Shown here: piece after piece, positions 7,743 through 33,580 of the stretch
How positions within the stretch are numbered: the first letter of the stretch is position 1
Layout of the letters: every line of letters begins with the position of its first letter
From: a virus
Virus record (IMG/VR): IMGVR_UViG_3300043411_000952
Coordinates: 1 to 64,000 of that record
Strand: one strand, 5' to 3'
DNA: 64,000 nt
Program-made: the position numbers and the translations under genes
The notes under the pieces: generated by a model
Told to the model about the DNA's origin: nothing
Databases searched by the model: none
Seen by the model: only the letters and a program-made list of their open reading frames with translations

Positions 7743-8151
7743 AGACGAAACTAAATTGTTTGAGGATTTTCAGAAAGTTCTTGCAACGCTACAAGATATT
7801 GCTAAAAAACTTCCAGACACTGAAAAGGTATTTGACCCTGTCTCTTACTTGATTAAGTCTCTGAAAGAAAGCGACGTCTTAATTGAATACAGAATCGTAG
7901 CCCACAGTAAACATGGAGAAATATTCAATATTGAAGGTGTAAGTAACCTACCCAGATTGTTTGACGAGTCTATGTTACCAGAAGCACCTACTAATTTTGA
8001 GAACGCATTTAACTCCAGCATCATACGCCCTGCATTAAATGCATTCATGAAATATACCCGGGATAAGGTAGAGGAGTATAAGAAACCAGTTTCAGGTTCG
8101 CAGTCGTTAATGTTACCTAATACAGAACAGCAAGAATTCATATCAGCATAA
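7702..8151 (+). CDS. Hypothetical protein
   Basis: 149-aa ORF ending 4 nt before thyA; start uncertain. Confidence 0.65.
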   Translation: MRNSKESETATTDKDETKLFEDFQKVLATLQDIAKKLPDTEKVFDPVSYLIKSLKESDVLIEYRIVAHSKHGEIFNIEGVSNLPRLFDESMLPEAPTNFENAFNSSIIRPALNAFMKYTRDKVEEYKKPVSGSQSLMLPNTEQQEFISA

Positions 8152-8155
8152 AGTT

Positions 8156-9754
8156 ATGATTGAGTATCAAAAGTTAATGAGGCATGTGTTGGAGAATGGT
8201 GTGTATAAGATGGATAGAACTGGCACTGGTGCTATTTCTGTATTCGGTACACAGAGTCGTTACAACCTAACTGAGGGCTTCCCTTTGGTGACGACAAAGA
8301 AGATGTTTACACGGGGGGTGGTTGGTGAGCTTCTGTGGTTCATAGAAGGCAATACCAACGCACGTTACCTTGAAGAGAAATACGGAATTAAATTCTGGAA
8401 AGACTGGGCAAATCCTGAAACCGGAGAGCTCGGACCTTTGTACGGTAAGCAGCTGCGAAATATTGAATATTCTTACTGGGTAGAGCCTAAACTTCGAACG
8501 CAGTCCGTAGAAGATATAGTTTTAAAAACTAGTTTTGATAAGAATATCATCGTGGATTATTTATCAGGAGAGTCGGTACATCTAGGTAAAACAATACAGA
8601 CCAAAGAATGTGGACCCTGTACAGTAGTTAAAGAGATTTCCGCGCCTTCTGGTAGAAGCCAATTCGATGTAAAATTCCATACTACTGGTTACACACGTCG
8701 TGTAGATTACTCGACCGTACAAACTACCACAATTAAGGATCCGTATCATCAGTCTGTATTCGGTGTAGGTTACTACGGGGAGTTTGAGGAAGACGAGCAT
8801 ACACCCATGCTGAAAACAACGTGGCGAGAAATGTTACGACGTTGCTATAATACTGAAAGTGACTCTTATAAAAGTTACGGAGCTAAAGGTATACATGTGC
8901 ATCCGTTATGGCTTTGCTTCGCTAATTTCAACAAAGACGCCAGAACTTTAACAAACTGGAGTTGTCGTTTAGAGTACGCGGCTGAATACGAGTTGGATAA
9001 AGATGTACGCTATGCCGCCAATTACTACAGTAAAGAAACCTGTATGTGGTCTTCTAAACTAGAGCAAGGGTATAACACGTCAACAAATAGACCATTTAAA
9101 TGTATAAATCCTGAGGGTAAGGAAATTTTCTTTAGGTCCGTGGGCGAGGCCCAAAGAAAACACGATCTTAACATTTCTGCCGTACATCGTTGTTTAAACG
9201 CAGAACTTCACACGCATCACGACTGGTCCAACTTTGAATATGTCGTAGAAGAAGGCAAGGTTTGTCGCACAAGGGTTATTGATCAGCTGAAAGAGGTTAT
9301 CGCGGAAATTAAACATAACCCAAATAGCCGTAGATTAATAATTAGTCTTTATAACCCGCATGAAGTAGATAAAATGAGTCTTCCTCCCTGTCATGGTAAC
9401 ATGATTCAATTTTTTGTTGATGATGAAAATAGATTGAGCCTACACATGTATCAGCGCAGCGGAGACCTATTTTTAGGGGTGCCTGTAAATATTGCCAGTT
9501 ACGCTCTATTGCTAATGCTGGTAGCGCAAGTTACTGGATACAAAGCACATGAATTTGTACATACCATTGGTGACGCGCATCTCTATGTAAATCATATTGA
9601 GCAAGCTAAGCTCCAGCTTTCCCGGGAACCTCTTGAACGCCCAACTATGATCATTAATCCAAACATCCAAAACATTGATGACTTTAGATATGAGGATTTT
9701 GAGCTGACTAATTATCAATGTTACCCAGCTATTAAAGCAGAAATCGCTGTTTAA
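8156..9754 (+). CDS. thyA: Thymidylate synthase with in-frame endonuclease insertion
   Basis: DRTGTG, FPLVTTKK, ELLWF, LGPLYGKQ, IDQ, NSRR, LPPCH, YQRSGD.FLGVP.NIASY, GDAHLY.NH. Confidence 0.95.
   Translation: MIEYQKLMRHVLENGVYKMDRTGTGAISVFGTQSRYNLTEGFPLVTTKKMFTRGVVGELLWFIEGNTNARYLEEKYGIKFWKDWANPETGELGPLYGKQLRNIEYSYWVEPKLRTQSVEDIVLKTSFDKNIIVDYLSGESVHLGKTIQTKECGPCTVVKEISAPSGRSQFDVKFHTTGYTRRVDYSTVQTTTIKDPYHQSVFGVGYYGEFEEDEHTPMLKTTWREMLRRCYNTESDSYKSYGAKGIHVHPLWLCFANFNKDARTLTNWSCRLEYAAEYELDKDVRYAANYYSKETCMWSSKLEQGYNTSTNRPFKCINPEGKEIFFRSVGEAQRKHDLNISAVHRCLNAELHTHHDWSNFEYVVEEGKVCRTRVIDQLKEVIAEIKHNPNSRRLIISLYNPHEVDKMSLPPCHGNMIQFFVDDENRLSLHMYQRSGDLFLGVPVNIASYALLLMLVAQVTGYKAHEFVHTIGDAHLYVNHIEQAKLQLSREPLERPTMIINPNIQNIDDFRYEDFELTNYQCYPAIKAEIAV
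8459..9277 (+). mobile_element. In-frame HNH-type homing endonuclease plus NUMOD1-like domain inside thyA
   Basis: 273 codons replace a ~9-aa loop. Motifs WREMLRRCYN..YKSYGAKGI.V...W..F.NF, LDKD....YSKETCMW and FRSVGEA......S.V..CL. Confidence 0.8.
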
Positions 9755-9774
9755 TTAACCTAACATATTTACCG

Positions 9775-9803
9775 AAGGGGTACTCGCAACAGAGTGCCCC
9801 TTT
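9775..9803 (+). terminator. Probable terminator hairpin after thyA
   Basis: AAGGGGTACTC-GCAACA-GAGTGCCCCTT followed by a short T run. Confidence 0.6.
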
Positions 9804-9823
9804 GTGTTATATAAATTTGTACG
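9803..9823 (+). promoter_or_regulatory. Recurring phage promoter-like motif, copy 1
   Basis: TGTGTTATATAAATTTGTACG, identical at 10282, 12870 and 61354. Confidence 0.75.
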
Positions 9824-9869
9824 CCAGCAATGGCTTTTATATTAAAAAACAACAAAACAATATTATATT

Positions 9870-10202
9870 ATGAAAAGTATTAGATACATACCTACTTCGC
9901 TAGCAGAACCTGGCTTCGGGGACGGGGACATGGCACCAACTGCTGTGGAGGTTTTACTCATTGGAGAAACTAGCCGCATCGAGCTGTTTGAGCAGCTTGG
10001 TCAGCCTGGGTTTTATCGGGCTCGAGTTATTTCTGATCCACTGCAGGAATTGGAGGGGGCAGAGATTATTTGTGGCGAAGATCAAACTACTCTAGTGCGG
10101 TTTATGGCTACCGCTGGTACCGTCACGTTTAACGGATCCTACGGAATCCTCGTTCGTCTTGCAGATGGACGCGTGATGCTGCCGGAAAAAGAAGCAGAGT
10201 AA
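9870..10202 (+). CDS. Hypothetical cassette gene
   Basis: 110-aa ORF between the motif and a terminator; A-rich leader. Confidence 0.7.
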   Translation: MKSIRYIPTSLAEPGFGDGDMAPTAVEVLLIGETSRIELFEQLGQPGFYRARVISDPLQELEGAEIICGEDQTTLVRFMATAGTVTFNGSYGILVRLADGRVMLPEKEAE

Positions 10203-10234
10203 ACCCAACAGGCGTCACCCGCCTAGGGGTACTG

Positions 10235-10256
10235 GGGATCTTCGGATCCCTTTTTT
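10235..10256 (+). terminator. Intrinsic terminator
   Basis: GGGATC-TTCG-GATCCC plus T6. Confidence 0.85.
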
Positions 10257-10281
10257 ATTTATCCGATATAACGCTATATCT

Positions 10282-27011: not shown

Positions 27012-27210
27012 GCTTACAACCAGGCTGGCTCATCTTGAGAAATTAAAAGATGAGCCAGTCATGGAAGATTTTGATGCTGGGCTTCGCGCCGCGCGTTACG
27101 ACGAGTATGTATTTATAAAAGAGGTATTGAAAGTATATGGAGAATCAAACGAAGGACAAGGTAGTACCTGTTCCAGACTACACTCTCCCGCCGTTACAGT
27201 ATCTCGATAA
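26989..27210 (+). CDS. Small hypothetical protein
   Basis: GTG-start ORF filling the gap before the polymerase gene. Confidence 0.4.
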   Translation: MDKKLNLKLTTRLAHLEKLKDEPVMEDFDAGLRAARYDEYVFIKEVLKVYGESNEGQGSTCSRLHSPAVTVSR

Positions 27211-30200
27211 GACAGGGACTGTTCGCGGGCATAATGGTGTTACATTTGTTTCTGGGGAAGGCATAAAGCCAGCCGATATAATGTTTATTACTTCCTGCGT
27301 ATCCCCGCAGGAGGCTAGTAAATTTCTTAAAGGCAGAGACGGAGGGCAGGGCGTCCGGGTGCAGCCTCGTTATCTGAGGTCAGACGCCGGTGTTATGTTC
27401 TCTGATATTTTTAATCAGGAGGGTATCGATCTTTATAAGTGCTACTACACAGCGCTGGTCAAATGGTTGCTGCCCAAGAATGAACGCATTAAGATACCGA
27501 AAGATGTAGTGGCTTGGGCGCTTCCCTCACTAGAAGAAGAGATAGCTCTCGTAAGCCCTAAGATCATTGTATGTATCGGCAAACCTGTCTTTGATCTTCT
27601 AGCAAATATAAAGCTGTCTTTGAGTGACGCCAAAAGCGGTTGGTTTTATAGCGAGAAGTACAACGCTAAAATATATCTCCTCGATGATACATATAAGCTT
27701 GTCTCTAACCCGGAGTACATTGGAAAGTTCCAGGTAGAAGCTAGAGAAATTAATAGGATGTATAAGGAGATATGTAATGTATCCACCGGACGCATTCCTT
27801 TAGAGTATGAGACAATTACTAATTCCTCTGATCTTAAAAGAGTAGTTAGCAATTGGAAACAGAATAATTTTGATGTAATTAGTGTGGACTGTGAGTGGTC
27901 TGGTAACAACCATATAGACGGTAAATTACGCAGCACGCAATTTTGCTGGGCCCCCGGTAAGGCATGTTATGTCCGCTGGATGGATGACAAGGGTAATTAC
28001 ACCTTTGATATTTCGTATAAAGAAGCAGGCGCTATACTTTCAGAGTGGTTAGATTTAGAAGATGTAAAATACATCGGGCATCACTTTGCTGCTGACGCCC
28101 CATGGTTGCATCATGTACTAGGACTTAATTGGTATGAGAAGTGTATTTTCGATACCGAGTTTGCGCAACAAACTGCTAATGAGGCCGAGGACCTTTCCTT
28201 AGAGCGAATAGCCCTGAAGTACACGGATTTAGGAAGGTATGACCTAGATCTTGTGTTGTGGGTTAAACAGAACAAGGCATTAATGGTGGATGGTGGCTAC
28301 GGCGCTATTCCGGATGAGATTCTTATACCTTATGCGTGTTTACGCCAAGAAAGTTTAGTACAGCTAGGCGATGGATCTTGGTGTAAAATTAAAGATCTAG
28401 TTAACAGTAAATATGCAGGAGAAGTTAAGGCTGTATTAAATGGTAAAGTACAGAATTGCAAAGTTACTAACTGGTACAAAGTCAATACCAGACAAAAAGT
28501 GTGGAAGAGGTTAGTAACTAAATATGCACAGAGAGGAAAGCATGGTTACTTAGGTCCGGTATTAACCCCTGATCATAAGGTAATAACGCAGAGAGGTAAG
28601 GTAGCAGTGCAGGATATTATACCTGGAAAGGATAGTATTTGTACGTCTTACAATACTTTTACGTCTACACAATTATCTGTATTTTTAGGTTGTCTACTAG
28701 GCGATGGCGGCATCGCGAGGAGAAACAAAGCGCACGCTGGTTTAGTTATGAGCCAGTGTGAAAAACGCGCTGATTATTTGAAGTGGAAAGTTAATGTACT
28801 TTTTGGTGACCCTGAAAATGTAGAATCAAAAGGTTCTTTATGCGCTTATAGATCCAAGTACACTCCATACATTGCCGCGTTATCGGATACATGGGAGAGA
28901 AAAGAGGCCTTGGCGCATAGTAAAAGAAAATTATTAATTACTGAAAATTTACTAGACCATCTTCAAGCGCCGGGAATAGCTGTCTGGTATCAAGATGATG
29001 GTAACCTAACTTGCGGTAACGAGGTACGTATTACTATTTACCATTTACAAGAGCAGGAGCTTGCCGCCTTACGTTCTTGGTTTAGAAGCAATATGGGTGT
29101 GTATGTTAAATATAGAAAAAATCAGAATCATATATGCTTTTCAGTTAAAGATTCTGTTGTTTTTTTAAATTATATTAAAGATTATATACATAATGATTGC
29201 GGATATAAAACCAATGTTCCGTATAATTTGAAGGTCAACGCGCATATACCAGGTCCTTTGTACTTTGAACCTATTGTTGGTATTAGTGACGTACCGGTCA
29301 AACCTTGTAGCGGTGATGGTATTCGTTACTGCTTAGCTGTAGATAAAGCGGAGAACTTCTTAACTAAGTCTGGTTTTGTTTCTAACTGCAAAGACGTAGA
29401 TACTGTCTTTAGAGCATGGCCAATTATTCAGCGGAGTCTGCAGGCTCAAGATCTTCTAGACTATTATAATAATATATTTCATCCGTTTGTTACGGATGTA
29501 TTTGTGAGTTTCGCCTTGGTTGGCCTTCCTATGGATGTAGCCATGATGGACGAGCTTAGAGTTTTATACACGTTTGCTAGAGACAAAATGGAAGTTATCC
29601 TGCGTGAGGAGATTCATGTAGAGGCTAAGAACTTTGTTTTAATGGCATTTGCAACTAGGTTACCTCCTGAGCTTGCTACTGAAAAATATTTAGAGTTCAT
29701 TTCTTTAATAGCTAATTCAGAGCATATGGAGGCCTGGGCGGTGCTTAAAGGATCCGCTAAAAAGCCTGATGATGTACCTAAACTTAAACATATATTCGAC
29801 CACTTTATTGACAGCGCGCATTTCAATATTAGATCTTCAACACAGTTAAAACGCTGGTTATTTAATGTTAAGTGTTACGAGCCTGTAAAGTCGACTGGTA
29901 ATAAGGAGAAAGGGCTACCTGCAACATCATGGGAAAAGATTAAGTCCATGCCGCCAGAGGCCCAGAAGAATTATAATCCTGCTGTTGATAAACAAACGCT
30001 GCAGATTTTATCTGAACAGAATAATGACGCGCTGCTTCGTAGGTTATTACAATTGAACGCTGTAGGTAATATATGTAAAGCTTTCCTTAAAGAGGCCGAC
30101 ATAGATGCTGACGGTAACGTTGTAAAAGAGAACGGGCTACATTTTTACCTATGCAGCGATAATCGTGTGCATGGGCAAATGAGTACCACAGAAACCGGAA

Positions 30201-33200
30201 GACCCCGGTGCGTCCACGGTGACACTTTAATACGTTGTTTTGATGGTTTTAAACGTATAAGAGATATTAAAATTGGTGACCTTGTCTGGACACATTTAAA
30301 CAGATGGAGAAAAGTAGAGGATACATATATTAAGCCAGCGGCCCCCATGTATAAGGTAAGTTTTGAAAATGGGGAAGTACTGTTATGTACTGAGGAACAT
30401 TTACTATTGACCGAAGCTGGAAAGTGGATATCTGTTAGAGATGTCTGTTTGCAAAAAGCATTTAAACAATCCGGAACTGAGGAAGAAAGTTGTTTCTCTT
30501 TACCGAGAGTCCTTGAGCACCGCCGAGCAAGTAGCGGAGATTTTGAATATAACTCCGCATACTACTTATCGAATACTTCGTCTAGAGTTAGGCGAGGAAG
30601 AATTCAAAAAGCTCAAAGCGATAAAATACTCGAGCTCAAAGCTGGGAGAGAAGAATCCTTGGAAAGGGAAGAGGGGGGAAGAGGCCGCGACCTGGAAGGG
30701 GGATTGCGACGATGGTTACGGTTATTTAACACGCCTAATAGATGGCCAACGTTACTTCGTACATCGTATAGTCATGGCAGAGGCGCTGGGTATACATCCC
30801 TCGCAGTTGCCGGATCATCTAGCTGTGCATCATATAGATCAGGATCGGAAAAACAACGCACTAGACAACTTAGCGCTCTGCACCACATCCGGGCACAGAG
30901 GTATCCACGAAAGATACAAACATACCGATCAGGAATTAAAATTAAAGGGGTTGTCCCTTGCGGAAGCTATCCAGTATATGACATCTCCGTAGAGGAGGAT
31001 CATTCCTACGAGGCGTCCGGTTGTTTTTCGCACAATTCTTGGAAACCAAACTCGTTGAATTGGCCTAGCTATGTTAACTCCATGATTTCTAATGGTATAG
31101 CTGGTCTTTTTGGTAAACTAAAAGAACGCGGAGAATTACCAGAAGAGTTTGAGAAGTTTATTATTAAAAATGATAAGGGGGAATACAAGAGTGAGGTACC
31201 TTCTATACGCAGTTGCGTTAAAGCTCCTGAAGGTTGGTGCTTTGTAGAGTCCGATTATCAGACTGCGGAAATTAGAGGACTAGCCTTTGTATCAGGGGAT
31301 AAAAACCTAATTGATATTGTTTGTAACCCCGATTTAAATTTTGCGGTTACTAAAGATGATAAAAAAGTTCGGCTGGCTTTTCCTCCTGAAGTGTTTCCTC
31401 CTTCCACACAGGAAGAGTATAAACACCTCCTTATTTCCCCGGATGATCCATCCTTAATAAGAAAAGATGACGGTTCTTTGAAACATCCTAAACAGGACCT
31501 ACATTGGTCTTTGGCTGAGATGGTTCATATTAAACCTAGAGAAGTACTTGACGAAAAGAAAGACCGTGGTGCTGCTAAGGTAGGTAACTTCAGCTGCGTT
31601 AATAAATATACAAAAATACGTACAGAAAAAGGTGTTCTAAGCATAGAAGACGCGATAATTTATGGTTGTACTTATGTATGGGATGGTTTAGATATGGTGT
31701 CTTATGATTCCATACAATACCAAGGAAATAGATTCACAATTAATTACCAAGGACTGTCCGCAACCCCAGACCATGTTGTCTGGCTCTCAAGTGGAGAAAA
31801 GTGTTGTTTCGGAGAAGCTGCCTTGCGAGGTCTCAGTATTAAATCGTATAGCGGCTTTGAATTGGATACGGCTGGTAGCAGACACAAGAACAATAGAACG
31901 CGCAAGAAAAGGCATCATATTTATGGTGCGGTGTCAAAGGTGTCAGAAAACAACGCGCAGGTGGTTACACAACGTGGAGGCGGGCAAAGGTCTAAAATGT
32001 CGATGCCTGTCTCCTTTGCGATACAACGACCCACGCGCGCGCACACTAGGCGCAAGGTATCAAGCTATGCGTCAAAGGTGTTTTCTAGACAGCCATGTCA
32101 GCAGCTACAATTACAAGGGGCGAGGCATAAAACTAATATTCAAAAGTCGCAGAGAATTTATTTTATGGGCGCTTCAAAGATGGCCGGATACAGACTTCAA
32201 AGGTTTGGATTTCGACAGAATAAACAACGATGGCCACTACTCGAAGGGCAACCTACGTTTGGTCACAAGGCAAGAAAATTTAAGAAATACGAGAGCTTCT
32301 CGCTGGTCCTACCGCGTACGCGCCGAGAAGTTATTAAAAGACAACCCAGGTGTGAGTGTCTCTATGAAAACGTTATGGGGCATGCTGCAAATGGGGTATT
32401 CGGAAGAAGAAATACTTCTAAGGATAAAGTCTGGAGAAATAAAGAGCCGGAAGGCAATATTAGCAAATGCGAAAGTATTGCAAGCCAGGAATTTAATAAG
32501 ATTAAATCCGGGCTTGGTTGTAGGAGAGAAACATATAATGAGTCTATATCGGAAAGGATTAACCGATCAGGATATAATAGAACATGTGGCGAAGCACGAA
32601 GAGTTAACTTTGCGTATTCGTCAGGCGAAGCAGCGCAGAGAAAACTCTTTGCAGCGATCGGCTCGTATAGGTATAGGCTTCGCGGCCAGTACTACAAGAA
32701 AGATGATACGAGAAGGTCTATCCGACGAGCAATTGCTGGCGGCGTGGGAAAAATCGTATGTAAAGTCAGAATCAATCAGGCAGAAGATAGAGAGGCTTGG
32801 CTTGAAGCTCAGCGTATCTACTACGCACAGGTTGATGAAGCAGGGCATGTCGGACGCGCAGTTAGAAGAATATTCGAAGAAAAGGGTTTTAAGCTCACAA
32901 AAGAGCCAGTATACGATATAATAAACGCAGGACCAAGGCATAGATTTGTTGCCAGTGGCTTGCTTATATCTAATTCGGCATACGGCGCGTCCGCCTCAAC
33001 CCTGGAACGCAAAATTGAACAGGATACAGGTAAGAAGCCAGAAGAAGGTACAGGTCAGCGGTTATTGAAGGCGCTTGAAAAACGTCAGCCAGTAGCACAA
33101 GACTTTTTAATTAAAATGGAACGTGTACCAGAGAAGCCCGGATATTACCGCGCAGCATCTGGAAGAATTCGTCATTTCGCTTCCCATGATCCAAAATACC

Positions 33201-33580
33201 TGGATGACATTGACGAGCATTTGACTATGGGCTTGTTTAAGTCTATGGGTAGAGAAGCTCGCAATTTCCCGATGCAGGAGAGTGTAGCTGCCACCGCTGC
33301 GCGAGCAGGTAAATGGCTGCTAGATGCTTACATCAAGTTAAATATGCAGGCTAGACCATTGATTATTTTATATGATTCCGTTGTTACTCTTTGTCCACTT
33401 GAAGAACGATTTAAGGTTGCGCAATTGCACCAGCTCTTTATGACGGATGAGAACACATGGGAGTACCATGGAAGAAAAATGTCGTACCCTATCGACAGCG
33501 ACTTCGTATATCGTTGGTCGGCTAAACCTGATAAAGATGATAAAAAATTGCTAGAAGATAAAACTTACAAAACCAACTGA
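27137..33580 (+). CDS. polA: Family A DNA polymerase with UDG-like N-terminus, 3'-5' exonuclease and 3 inteins (~1061 aa after splicing)
   Basis: ExoI VDCE, ExoIII YA|CKD, TETGR, motif A SDYQTAEIR, motif B R.AAK.GNFS|SAYG, NFPMQ, motif C LYDS. Confidence 0.93.
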   Translation: MENQTKDKVVPVPDYTLPPLQYLDKTGTVRGHNGVTFVSGEGIKPADIMFITSCVSPQEASKFLKGRDGGQGVRVQPRYLRSDAGVMFSDIFNQEGIDLYKCYYTALVKWLLPKNERIKIPKDVVAWALPSLEEEIALVSPKIIVCIGKPVFDLLANIKLSLSDAKSGWFYSEKYNAKIYLLDDTYKLVSNPEYIGKFQVEAREINRMYKEICNVSTGRIPLEYETITNSSDLKRVVSNWKQNNFDVISVDCEWSGNNHIDGKLRSTQFCWAPGKACYVRWMDDKGNYTFDISYKEAGAILSEWLDLEDVKYIGHHFAADAPWLHHVLGLNWYEKCIFDTEFAQQTANEAEDLSLERIALKYTDLGRYDLDLVLWVKQNKALMVDGGYGAIPDEILIPYACLRQESLVQLGDGSWCKIKDLVNSKYAGEVKAVLNGKVQNCKVTNWYKVNTRQKVWKRLVTKYAQRGKHGYLGPVLTPDHKVITQRGKVAVQDIIPGKDSICTSYNTFTSTQLSVFLGCLLGDGGIARRNKAHAGLVMSQCEKRADYLKWKVNVLFGDPENVESKGSLCAYRSKYTPYIAALSDTWERKEALAHSKRKLLITENLLDHLQAPGIAVWYQDDGNLTCGNEVRITIYHLQEQELAALRSWFRSNMGVYVKYRKNQNHICFSVKDSVVFLNYIKDYIHNDCGYKTNVPYNLKVNAHIPGPLYFEPIVGISDVPVKPCSGDGIRYCLAVDKAENFLTKSGFVSNCKDVDTVFRAWPIIQRSLQAQDLLDYYNNIFHPFVTDVFVSFALVGLPMDVAMMDELRVLYTFARDKMEVILREEIHVEAKNFVLMAFATRLPPELATEKYLEFISLIANSEHMEAWAVLKGSAKKPDDVPKLKHIFDHFIDSAHFNIRSSTQLKRWLFNVKCYEPVKSTGNKEKGLPATSWEKIKSMPPEAQKNYNPAVDKQTLQILSEQNNDALLRRLLQLNAVGNICKAFLKEADIDADGNVVKENGLHFYLCSDNRVHGQMSTTETGRPRCVHGDTLIRCFDGFKRIRDIKIGDLVWTHLNRWRKVEDTYIKPAAPMYKVSFENGEVLLCTEEHLLLTEAGKWISVRDVCLQKAFKQSGTEEESCFSLPRVLEHRRASSGDFEYNSAYYLSNTSSRVRRGRIQKAQSDKILELKAGREESLEREEGGRGRDLEGGLRRWLRLFNTPNRWPTLLRTSYSHGRGAGYTSLAVAGSSSCASYRSGSEKQRTRQLSALHHIRAQRYPRKIQTYRSGIKIKGVVPCGSYPVYDISVEEDHSYEASGCFSHNSWKPNSLNWPSYVNSMISNGIAGLFGKLKERGELPEEFEKFIIKNDKGEYKSEVPSIRSCVKAPEGWCFVESDYQTAEIRGLAFVSGDKNLIDIVCNPDLNFAVTKDDKKVRLAFPPEVFPPSTQEEYKHLLISPDDPSLIRKDDGSLKHPKQDLHWSLAEMVHIKPREVLDEKKDRGAAKVGNFSCVNKYTKIRTEKGVLSIEDAIIYGCTYVWDGLDMVSYDSIQYQGNRFTINYQGLSATPDHVVWLSSGEKCCFGEAALRGLSIKSYSGFELDTAGSRHKNNRTRKKRHHIYGAVSKVSENNAQVVTQRGGGQRSKMSMPVSFAIQRPTRAHTRRKVSSYASKVFSRQPCQQLQLQGARHKTNIQKSQRIYFMGASKMAGYRLQRFGFRQNKQRWPLLEGQPTFGHKARKFKKYESFSLVLPRTRREVIKRQPRCECLYENVMGHAANGVFGRRNTSKDKVWRNKEPEGNISKCESIASQEFNKIKSGLGCRRETYNESISERINRSGYNRTCGEARRVNFAYSSGEAAQRKLFAAIGSYRYRLRGQYYKKDDTRRSIRRAIAGGVGKIVCKVRINQAEDREAWLEAQRIYYAQVDEAGHVGRAVRRIFEEKGFKLTKEPVYDIINAGPRHRFVASGLLISNSAYGASASTLERKIEQDTGKKPEEGTGQRLLKALEKRQPVAQDFLIKMERVPEKPGYYRAASGRIRHFASHDPKYLDDIDEHLTMGLFKSMGREARNFPMQESVAATAARAGKWLLDAYIKLNMQARPLIILYDSVVTLCPLEERFKVAQLHQLFMTDENTWEYHGRKMSYPIDSDFVYRWSAKPDKDDKKLLEDKTYKTN
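28337..29386 (+). mobile_element. Pol intein 1 (350 aa, LAGLIDADG)
   Basis: CLRQES...LTPDH...GCLLGDG...WYQDDG...FVSN|C. Confidence 0.92.
30209..31036 (+). mobile_element. Pol intein 2 (276 aa) with out-of-frame HNH gene
   Basis: CVHGDT...CTEEH...VYDISV....SY.....SHN|S. Confidence 0.9.
30441..30992 (+). CDS. HNH endonuclease in the +1 frame inside Pol intein 2
   Basis: HTH-like N-terminus, GEKNPW/WKG motif, HRIVM, VHHIDQDRKNNALDNL.L....H...H. Confidence 0.85.
   Translation: MSVCKKHLNNPELRKKVVSLYRESLSTAEQVAEILNITPHTTYRILRLELGEEEFKKLKAIKYSSSKLGEKNPWKGKRGEEAATWKGDCDDGYGYLTRLIDGQRYFVHRIVMAEALGIHPSQLPDHLAVHHIDQDRKNNALDNLALCTTSGHRGIHERYKHTDQELKLKGLSLAEAIQYMTSP
31595..32974 (+). mobile_element. 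Pol intein 3 (460 aa) with out-of-frame HNH gene
   Basis: CVNKYT...ATPDH...VYDIINAGPRHRF.....ISN|S. Confidence 0.9.
31704..32921 (+). CDS. HNH endonuclease in the +1 frame inside Pol intein 3 (true start may be later)
   Basis: CQRC...CRC, YQAMRQRC......YNYKGRGI, DRINNDGHYSKGNLRLVT..EN.RN, repeated C-terminal helical units. Confidence 0.85.
   Translation: MIPYNTKEIDSQLITKDCPQPQTMLSGSQVEKSVVSEKLPCEVSVLNRIAALNWIRLVADTRTIERARKGIIFMVRCQRCQKTTRRWLHNVEAGKGLKCRCLSPLRYNDPRARTLGARYQAMRQRCFLDSHVSSYNYKGRGIKLIFKSRREFILWALQRWPDTDFKGLDFDRINNDGHYSKGNLRLVTRQENLRNTRASRWSYRVRAEKLLKDNPGVSVSMKTLWGMLQMGYSEEEILLRIKSGEIKSRKAILANAKVLQARNLIRLNPGLVVGEKHIMSLYRKGLTDQDIIEHVAKHEELTLRIRQAKQRRENSLQRSARIGIGFAASTTRKMIREGLSDEQLLAAWEKSYVKSESIRQKIERLGLKLSVSTTHRLMKQGMSDAQLEEYSKKRVLSSQKSQYTI

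Follow-up and report, generated by a model that had tools for sequence, protein, structure and literature searches.

The known arrangements of homing endonucleases are inteins, open reading frames (ORFs) within introns, free-standing genes and genes-in-pieces, and to our knowledge selfish endonuclease genes are thought to survive in essential genes only if they are spliced out or split the gene into working pieces. The published case closest to the locus described here is the ShiLan-domain insertion in mycobacteriophage DNA methylase genes (Arsenault, Gosselin & Gogarten 2025, PMC11855218). Our locus is the thymidylate synthase gene, thyA, of a phage fragment, carried on a 64,000-nucleotide stretch of DNA (positions 1 to 64,000 of IMG/VR record IMGVR_UViG_3300043411_000952; the whole stretch is called the window below), in which 273 codons for an endonuclease-like module stand in frame within the enzyme. 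We found no published description of an endonuclease-like module in frame in ThyA, our coverage of the literature being incomplete. On balance, we think it probable that the insert is an in-frame, unspliced cassette that derives from a homing endonuclease and spreads by gene conversion.

An in-frame insert in thymidylate synthase

In the ORF list, thyA is a single + strand frame of 532 aa (8156..9754), insert included, and the Pfam family Thymidylat_synt (PF00303) matches it with E 3.7e-101, split into two stretches. E. coli and other solved thymidylate synthase (TS) chains align to residues 3-102 and 372/373-532, and YGKQLR and IDQ flank the insert, which spans 8459-9277 (residues N102-V374, 273 codons); residue 107 of E. 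coli TS pairs with ORF residue 373, so that about nine residues (8-9) are replaced at the tip of a hairpin. The original prediction, made from the letters of the window, had described this one frame, these boundaries and this replacement, and the TS alignments bear it out. The insert is not set apart by base composition (G+C 0.407 versus 0.427 for the window), and a nucleotide search of a phage collection with the whole gene returned short thyA matches only. The source record, a 74-kb IMG/VR phage fragment with an estimated completeness of 41%, holds one ThyA and no ThyX.

In 80 fused homologues the catalytic residues of ThyA show no or almost no variation (R21, E58, W81, Y96, R392/R393, C412 and H413, and further R434, S435, D437, N445, H475 and Y477), including the Arg pair that acts across the dimer (partner subunit), and the claim that the ThyA motifs are intact thus stands. 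The protein has both the TS fold and the catalytic residues of a PF00303 member (Cys nucleophile, Arg quartet, dUMP Asn, His/Tyr). In the full-length AlphaFold model (pLDDT 95.7, pTM 0.91) the TS core superposes on E. coli TS with a TM of 0.96, and strands are predicted at residues 103-109 and 368-375, where a stalk had been proposed. The model places the insert at the tip of a surface hairpin on the TS core (E. coli residues ~100-108), in agreement with the earlier picture of a surface-loop domain on a stalk.

Mosaic thyA alleles in syntenic phages

Syntenic IMG/VR contigs, which share the terminase and the upstream and downstream genes of the window, differ in the state of thyA. Long-insert genes are found on some (L001/L009, L002/L010 and L003/L011) and empty 264-aa genes on others (L004/L008, L006 and L007); a third allele of 445 aa (P0189, P0190 and P0198) combines an ordinary backbone with a shorter, distantly related module at the same site. 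Backbone similarity is independent of insert state: the closest upstream pair joins the empty L007 to the insert-bearing L010 (91%), and L011, the most distant relative, carries the insert.

Homology to the empty alleles breaks sharply at codon 50 (8302) and is back near 9405. In protein-guided segment comparisons, identity to the local empty alleles is 94-100% over codons 1-49 and 81-89% over codons 421-532; over codons 50-102 and 375-420 it is 45-58% to these local alleles versus 74-91% to long-insert ThyAs on unrelated contigs. Outside the insert, the gene divides as follows.

8156..9754, + strand: whole thyA ORF, 532 aa (Pfam, TS alignments, AlphaFold).
8156..8302, + strand: thyA codons 1-49, backbone-type 5' end common to insert-free alleles (94-100% aa identity to L006, L007 and L008; blastn homology to L004 stops at 8302).
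8303..8458, + strand: thyA codons 50-101, cassette-type upstream flank (45-51% identity to local empty alleles, 79-81% to the distant fused P0009 and P0019; tree support 98/95).
9278..9404, + strand: thyA codons 375-416, downstream flank that moves with the insert (56-58% identity to local empty alleles versus 74-91% to distant fused ThyAs).
9405..9754, + strand: thyA 3' end, backbone-type (81-89% aa identity to local empty alleles versus 46-64% to distant fused ThyAs; blastn homology to L004 starts again at 9405).

The empty alleles are uniformly bacterial-like, and the distant long-insert gene P0009 has the same mosaic pattern as the window gene. Phylogenetic analysis separates the two kinds of segment, the groups compared by the approximately unbiased (AU) test having been named after the identity tables were seen. 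For the gene ends, all nine local alleles group together (100/99), and the test rejects a clade uniting every long-insert gene (AU p 0.0026). For the central flanks, the local long-insert alleles group with their distant counterparts (98/95), and the test rejects a clade of the local alleles (AU p 2e-10). Because the gene ends follow the phage backbone and the insert-proximal flanks follow distant insert-bearing genes, the unit that moved horizontally is a cassette of ~1.1 kb (~8303-9404), in which the insert is bordered on either side by ~150 bp of thyA that belongs to it. A patchy distribution among close relatives and co-converted flanks, as asked of a homing endonuclease gene in the functional sense, are both seen at this locus.

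The same contrast occurs in cultured phages. Bacillus subtilis phages 015DV002 and 015DV004, isolated at the same site and 96-98% identical around thyA, have genes of 564 and 294 aa, respectively; at the same insertion site an 818-nt segment of 015DV002 stands where 015DV004 has 8 nt, and a short divergent tract lies downstream of the insert. The original prediction had looked to related phage thyA genes for presence and absence of the insert at this site, and the site is indeed polymorphic among them, with mosaic flanks and a near-isogenic plus/minus pair in culture. Bacillus phage Kioshi has a module-bearing gene of 548 aa. This gene (gene 41; L013 946-2592) encodes a very divergent ThyA homologue with changes around the catalytic Cys and in several motifs, and the 548-aa 'thymidylate synthase' may not be a canonical TS.

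Two further alleles differ in arrangement. At 4820-4860 of L011 (which shares its contig with L003; IMGVR_UViG_3300044627_004253) the N-terminal arm has lost 13 nt, which shifts the frame and thereby splits thyA into an N-terminal fragment and a 397-aa ORF (P0008, in a cluster with 5 members) that holds the module and the C-terminal part of ThyA; a dead gene, a genes-in-pieces arrangement and an assembly error are all conceivable. In a non-syntenic phage (L016 4001-5323; IMGVR_UViG_3300031565_000016) the short insert of the 445-aa type interrupts an otherwise ordinary thyA, and the short module has therefore also reached unrelated backbones.

Search for signs of splicing

A Pfam scan of the window ThyA gave no Intein_splicing or Hint match at E<=1, and the same library detected a genuine intein in another fused ThyA, P0085. 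Across homologues there is no conserved Cys, Ser or Thr at the first insert position, where the residue varies (N, G, R, K, S, H, M, C and others), and the insert ends in R-x-R-[VI]-[IV] followed by DQ, without a His-Asn and a subsequent Cys, Ser or Thr. The fold of the insert is not that of Hint (AlphaFold model, Foldseek and VIA-align). No Rfam group I or group II intron was matched at E<=10 within 7900-10100, and only ~140 nt of the insert lie outside the module, evolving as codons (dN/dS 0.10-0.18). The original observations that the insert has neither a Cys/Ser start nor a His-Asn end, no intein blocks and no group I elements are thus upheld by the homologues and by both searches.

One alternative is that the insert is a spliced element, namely a group I intron with a read-through ORF or a case of unrecognized protein splicing. 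Phage thyA is a classic intron host (T4 td) and relatives of the module do occur in introns (PMC11878797); nevertheless, we regard this explanation as very improbable, given the lack of any Rfam intron match at that threshold, the protein-level constraint on the ~140 nt outside the module, the frame into downstream ThyA that is kept in all fused forms despite many changes in length, and the absence of a Hint fold and of a conserved junction nucleophile from an insert whose fold is that of an I-HmuI-like modular protein. We infer that neither the RNA nor the protein is spliced.

P0085 (909 aa) is itself of interest, in that it carries an endonuclease-like module in the hairpin and the genuine intein (Intein_splicing plus LAGLIDADG_3) at a second site (~residues 429-742), that is, two different selfish elements within one thyA gene.

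Anatomy and fold of the insert

The insert consists of a whole protein of a free-standing family between two arms, one of 37 residues at the N-terminal end and one of 10 residues at the C-terminal end. A profile made from 48 members that stand alone (220-299 aa, most of them 220-245) matches 8570-9247 over positions 5-234/236 with E 2.6e-78, and the free-standing relatives begin after the N-terminal arm; among PHROG families the match is to phrog_2081 ('HNH endonuclease'; E 7.1e-48, profile positions 25-257). An insert-only AlphaFold model (pLDDT 87) has three parts, and the top Foldseek match of the insert overall is I-HmuI (1u3e). Arms and domains are arranged as follows.

8459..8569, + strand: N-terminal linker arm, residues 102-138, with stalk strand 103-109 (predicted strand; P111 invariant in 19 homologues; dN/dS 0.10-0.18).
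8570..9247, + strand: module, equivalent to a complete free-standing phage protein of ~235 aa (phrog_2081; profile E 2.6e-78).
8567..8731, + strand: Tudor/SH3-like beta-barrel, insert model residues 37-91 (VIA-align Z 5-6.7; pLDDT >90).
8774..9088, + strand: helical and beta-beta-alpha middle domain, WxxMxxRCY ... YG.KG ... LDKD ... Y ... C.W ... E[QN] (PacI fold match).
8993..9076, + strand: putative beta-beta-alpha-metal motif, L280-N307, with D281-K282-D283, Y291 and Q304 (residue conservation; no His at the canonical position).
9083..9253, + strand: I-HmuI-type C-terminal DNA-binding (NUMOD-like) domain (1u3e superposition and profile).
9254..9277, + strand: C-terminal linker arm, part of stalk strand 368-375, KVCRTRVI (predicted strand; R371 invariant in 19 homologues).

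The N-terminal barrel resembles VapX, the CarD N-domain, the UvrD/PcrA Tudor domain and the Hpy99I N-domain (VIA-align Z 5-6.7). The middle domain comes closest in fold to PacI, an HNH restriction enzyme (Z 5.1, rmsd 3.1 over 85 residues), and its predicted strands (278-281 and 297-300) and helix (301-306) follow the strand-strand-helix order expected of a beta-beta-alpha-metal fold. The C-terminal domain superposes closely on residues 119-174 of 1u3e (VIA-align Z 8.5, rmsd 1.1 A over 56 residues), and a profile of it matches the 1u3e sequence with E 8e-8. The original prediction had called this domain NUMOD1-like; its motif is instead that of the I-HmuI NUMOD-like family (PF22083), which scores 22.5 bits on it, under the 27-bit cut-off. 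As a description of the whole insert, an HNH domain plus a NUMOD1-like domain also overlooks the Tudor/SH3-like barrel at the N terminus.

Fused and free-standing relatives

When the insert was used as a query against 1.84 billion representatives (clustered at 50% identity), 7315 matches were obtained, and the best 150 were examined. Among these are ~87 ThyA fusions with the module at the same site and ~77 free-standing proteins. The fused inserts are 154-282 aa long and always in frame; shorter fused forms do not have the barrel, and P0019 does not have the C-terminal domain. In a module-core tree (FastTree; most branches weak) fused and free forms interleave outside the clade that holds the window insert, and the well-supported branches require no fewer than five changes of state.

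Free-standing relatives lie beside thyA or RNR genes in cultured phages: two genes upstream of thyA in phage Chotacabras, and between the RNR and dUTPase genes in phage Sophrita. In the Bastillevirinae, phrog_2081 genes lie within group I introns of DNA polymerase genes (PMC11878797).

In P0201 (308 aa), a tandem duplication of ~44 residues (the SIIHELLWFL...GELGPVYG block) has its junction immediately after YGAQ, where the insertion site has its upstream edge, and may be a repair scar or an assembly artefact.

Putative active site, selection and alternative readings

The putative active site of the middle domain is conserved alike in fused and free proteins. The DKD triplet (281-283) is retained by 88/89 fused and 66-67/68 free proteins and Y291, which lies in the inter-strand loop, by 88/89 and 68/68; position 304 in the helix, assigned as a metal-ligand position by spacing only, is Q or N in 87/89 and 67/68; R229 is likewise kept almost without exception, equally in both forms. 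PacI, a member of His-Me finger group 20, has no His and uses a loop Tyr in its role (PMC5714182), and because PacI shares this lack of His and Y291 is kept here, a tyrosine-dependent mechanism is plausible by analogy for the middle domain.

Elsewhere in the window, an ORF at 31704-32921 (+), which overlaps the large DNA polymerase ORF 27137-33580 in another frame, shares the middle-domain motif with the thyA insert (xQAMRQRC ... YKGRGI ... LDFDR ... Y ... EN), with Arg, not Lys, at the His position; by hhalign its similarity to the insert is weak (E 8e-4, probability 24%).

Several observations weigh against an origin from a homing endonuclease that spreads as an unspliced domain. The middle domain has no Pfam HNH match in a scan at E<=1, and its fold match to an HNH enzyme is only moderate (PacI, Z 5.1). 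The canonical general-base His at the end of strand 1, expected of an HNH/His-Me finger nuclease (I-HmuI group, HNH_3), is absent, being replaced by Lys282 in LDKD in 88/89 fused and 67/68 free proteins. On both counts, the Pfam match and the His, the HNH-type nuclease of the original prediction needs correction. On the module-core tree the window insert belongs to a well-supported clade whose 52 representatives are without exception fused or partial, which also fits long-term retention as a useful domain. None of the sequencing runs listed as containing the gene is on record as RNA, and four labelled 'RNA-Seq' are probably DNA (contigs up to 170 kb); contigs of these four runs cross both insert junctions without an insert-skipping joint, which has no bearing on splicing. 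To these points are added the after-the-fact naming of the AU-test groups and the roughness of the dN/dS values.

Comparison of the window with L009 and L010 gives a dN/dS of 0.06-0.09 for the insert, as low as for ThyA itself, 0.04-0.05 for the middle domain and 0.10-0.18 for the linker arms, all of which are rough values since dS is near saturation. A second alternative is that the module is an inactive passenger without cleavage of its own, carried by recombination or mobilized in trans, and in frame only since frame breaks destroy ThyA. Mobilization in trans has a precedent in T4 mobE, which mobilizes the defunct I-TevIII (PMC2790892), and the non-canonical active site, the relative with the frame-breaking 13-nt deletion and the presence of other nuclease genes in the same genome record (one with Pfam HNH_3 above the cut-off and one with Pfam HNH just under it) would all agree with such a passenger. 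However, a dN/dS of 0.04-0.05 in the middle domain and near-universal polar residues are unexpected for a dead passenger, and we consider this explanation distinctly unlikely.

A third alternative is a domesticated domain, that is, a non-nuclease DNA- or RNA-binding module that helps the phage, for instance as a tether between dTMP synthesis and replicating DNA or as a regulator of thyA, and that spreads by ordinary recombination and selection only. The absent catalytic His, purifying selection on the module as strong as on ThyA, the large all-fused clade and the confident placement of the module relative to the enzyme by AlphaFold (pTM 0.91) would all suit such a role. On the other side, close relatives manage without the module, two unrelated module lineages occupy the same site within one phage group, truncated forms occur (P0019), and the same residues are shared by free-standing relatives and by relatives in introns, both of which behave like homing endonuclease genes (PMC11878797). 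We therefore hold domestication to be unlikely, if somewhat less so than an inactive passenger.

A model for the spread of the cassette

We hypothesize that the insert is a homing-endonuclease-derived gene that lives within thyA as a translated, unspliced, in-frame domain. The 532-aa product would fold as a normal thymidylate synthase, and splicing would be unnecessary because the enzyme stays active. A two-stranded stalk rising from the hairpin tip would hold the DNA-binding/nuclease-type module, composed of the Tudor-like barrel, the His-less beta-beta-alpha domain and the I-HmuI-type C-terminal domain. The cassette (the insert with ~150 bp of co-adapted thyA on each side) would enter insert-free thyA alleles by gene conversion during mixed infection, a conversion presumably started by the embedded module cutting the empty site. 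ThyA is an obligate dimer, so that two modules, and two active sites, would be present per enzyme. With Lys in place of the canonical HNH His, cleavage by the embedded module is hypothetical. The more specific proposal that the nuclease works while built permanently, as a domain, into the essential enzyme that it invaded, that the homodimer supplies two PacI-like, Tyr-dependent sites for a double-strand break at the empty site, and that the re-engineered flanks both fit the domain and destroy the target is put forward tentatively, as a possibility that may well prove wrong.

The host enzyme in this case tolerates a 273-residue passenger domain, and the arrangement is widespread: it is found in dozens of clusters at 50% identity and in several groups of phages, cultured Bacillus phages among them. 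It offers a natural example of a large domain insertion into a well-studied drug-target fold and a possible route by which nuclease DNA-binding modules could become permanent parts of enzymes. If the embedded nuclease is active, it would represent a further homing-endonuclease lifestyle besides the free-standing gene, the intron ORF and the intein, and the near-isogenic plus/minus pair of Bacillus subtilis phages makes the question of homing directly testable.

Surroundings of thyA

The neighbours of thyA in the window are large terminase, SbcCD-like and helicase genes. Directly 3' of the thyA stop, a G+C-rich hairpin followed by a T run (9776-9812) looks by eye like an intrinsic terminator. 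A second variable spot lies beside thyA at 9638-10250 (9825-10280 against related loci) and includes a 110-aa ORF (9870-10202). In contigs of two runs the stretch from the end of thyA to the gene for a 665-aa protein is taken up instead by 531 unrelated bases; the stretch as it stands in the window cannot be aligned to the related loci either.

Comparison with known systems

I-HmuI, the HNH homing endonuclease of phage SPO1 (1u3e), has a C-terminal DNA-binding domain homologous to that of the thyA insert, and both proteins have a modular, elongated layout; the insert differs from I-HmuI in having no HNH_3 match, Lys for His at the end of strand 1 and an additional Tudor-like barrel at its N terminus. 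PacI (3m7k) and the middle domain share the lack of a catalytic His and the presence of a Tyr in the inter-strand loop, a likeness of loop position within a weak match, and zinc sites such as those of PacI were not identified in the thyA module. Kinship with the IPA-HNH homing endonucleases of ICP1-like phages (divergent N-terminal HNH and C-terminal AP2; PMC10448857) was also considered and is not supported, there being no AP2 (PF00847) match at E<=1 and the C-terminal domain being of the I-HmuI type.

The phrog_2081 genes belong to the same family as the insert, with the same three-domain layout and conserved residues, and are likewise associated with nucleotide-metabolism and replication genes. 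In introns or between genes they are separate ORFs, whereas the thyA module has neither its own start nor its own stop and runs into its host protein at both ends.

The ShiLan insertion resembles that in thyA in its position inside a phage enzyme gene whose frame stays open, in its lack of intron and intein features and in its patchy, homing-like distribution, and it too is predicted to be retained in the protein, as a protruding hairpin-like structure. However, the HNH endonuclease of ShiLan is encoded in another frame and its in-frame read-through is a featureless loop, whereas the thyA module is itself in the ThyA frame and forms a folded domain; the host gene also differs, and the thyA insert carries co-adapted flanks. 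A hidden HNH gene of the ShiLan type was rejected for this locus, since the module is in the ThyA frame and 8459-9277 contains no alternative-frame ORF of >=40 aa on the + strand.

Inteins and genes-in-pieces, such as Aeh1 nrdA split by mobE, likewise place selfish endonuclease genes inside essential genes of nucleotide metabolism. Inteins excise themselves by means of a Hint domain and genes-in-pieces divide the host gene into two ORFs; in thyA, by contrast, nothing appears to be removed and the gene is unsplit.

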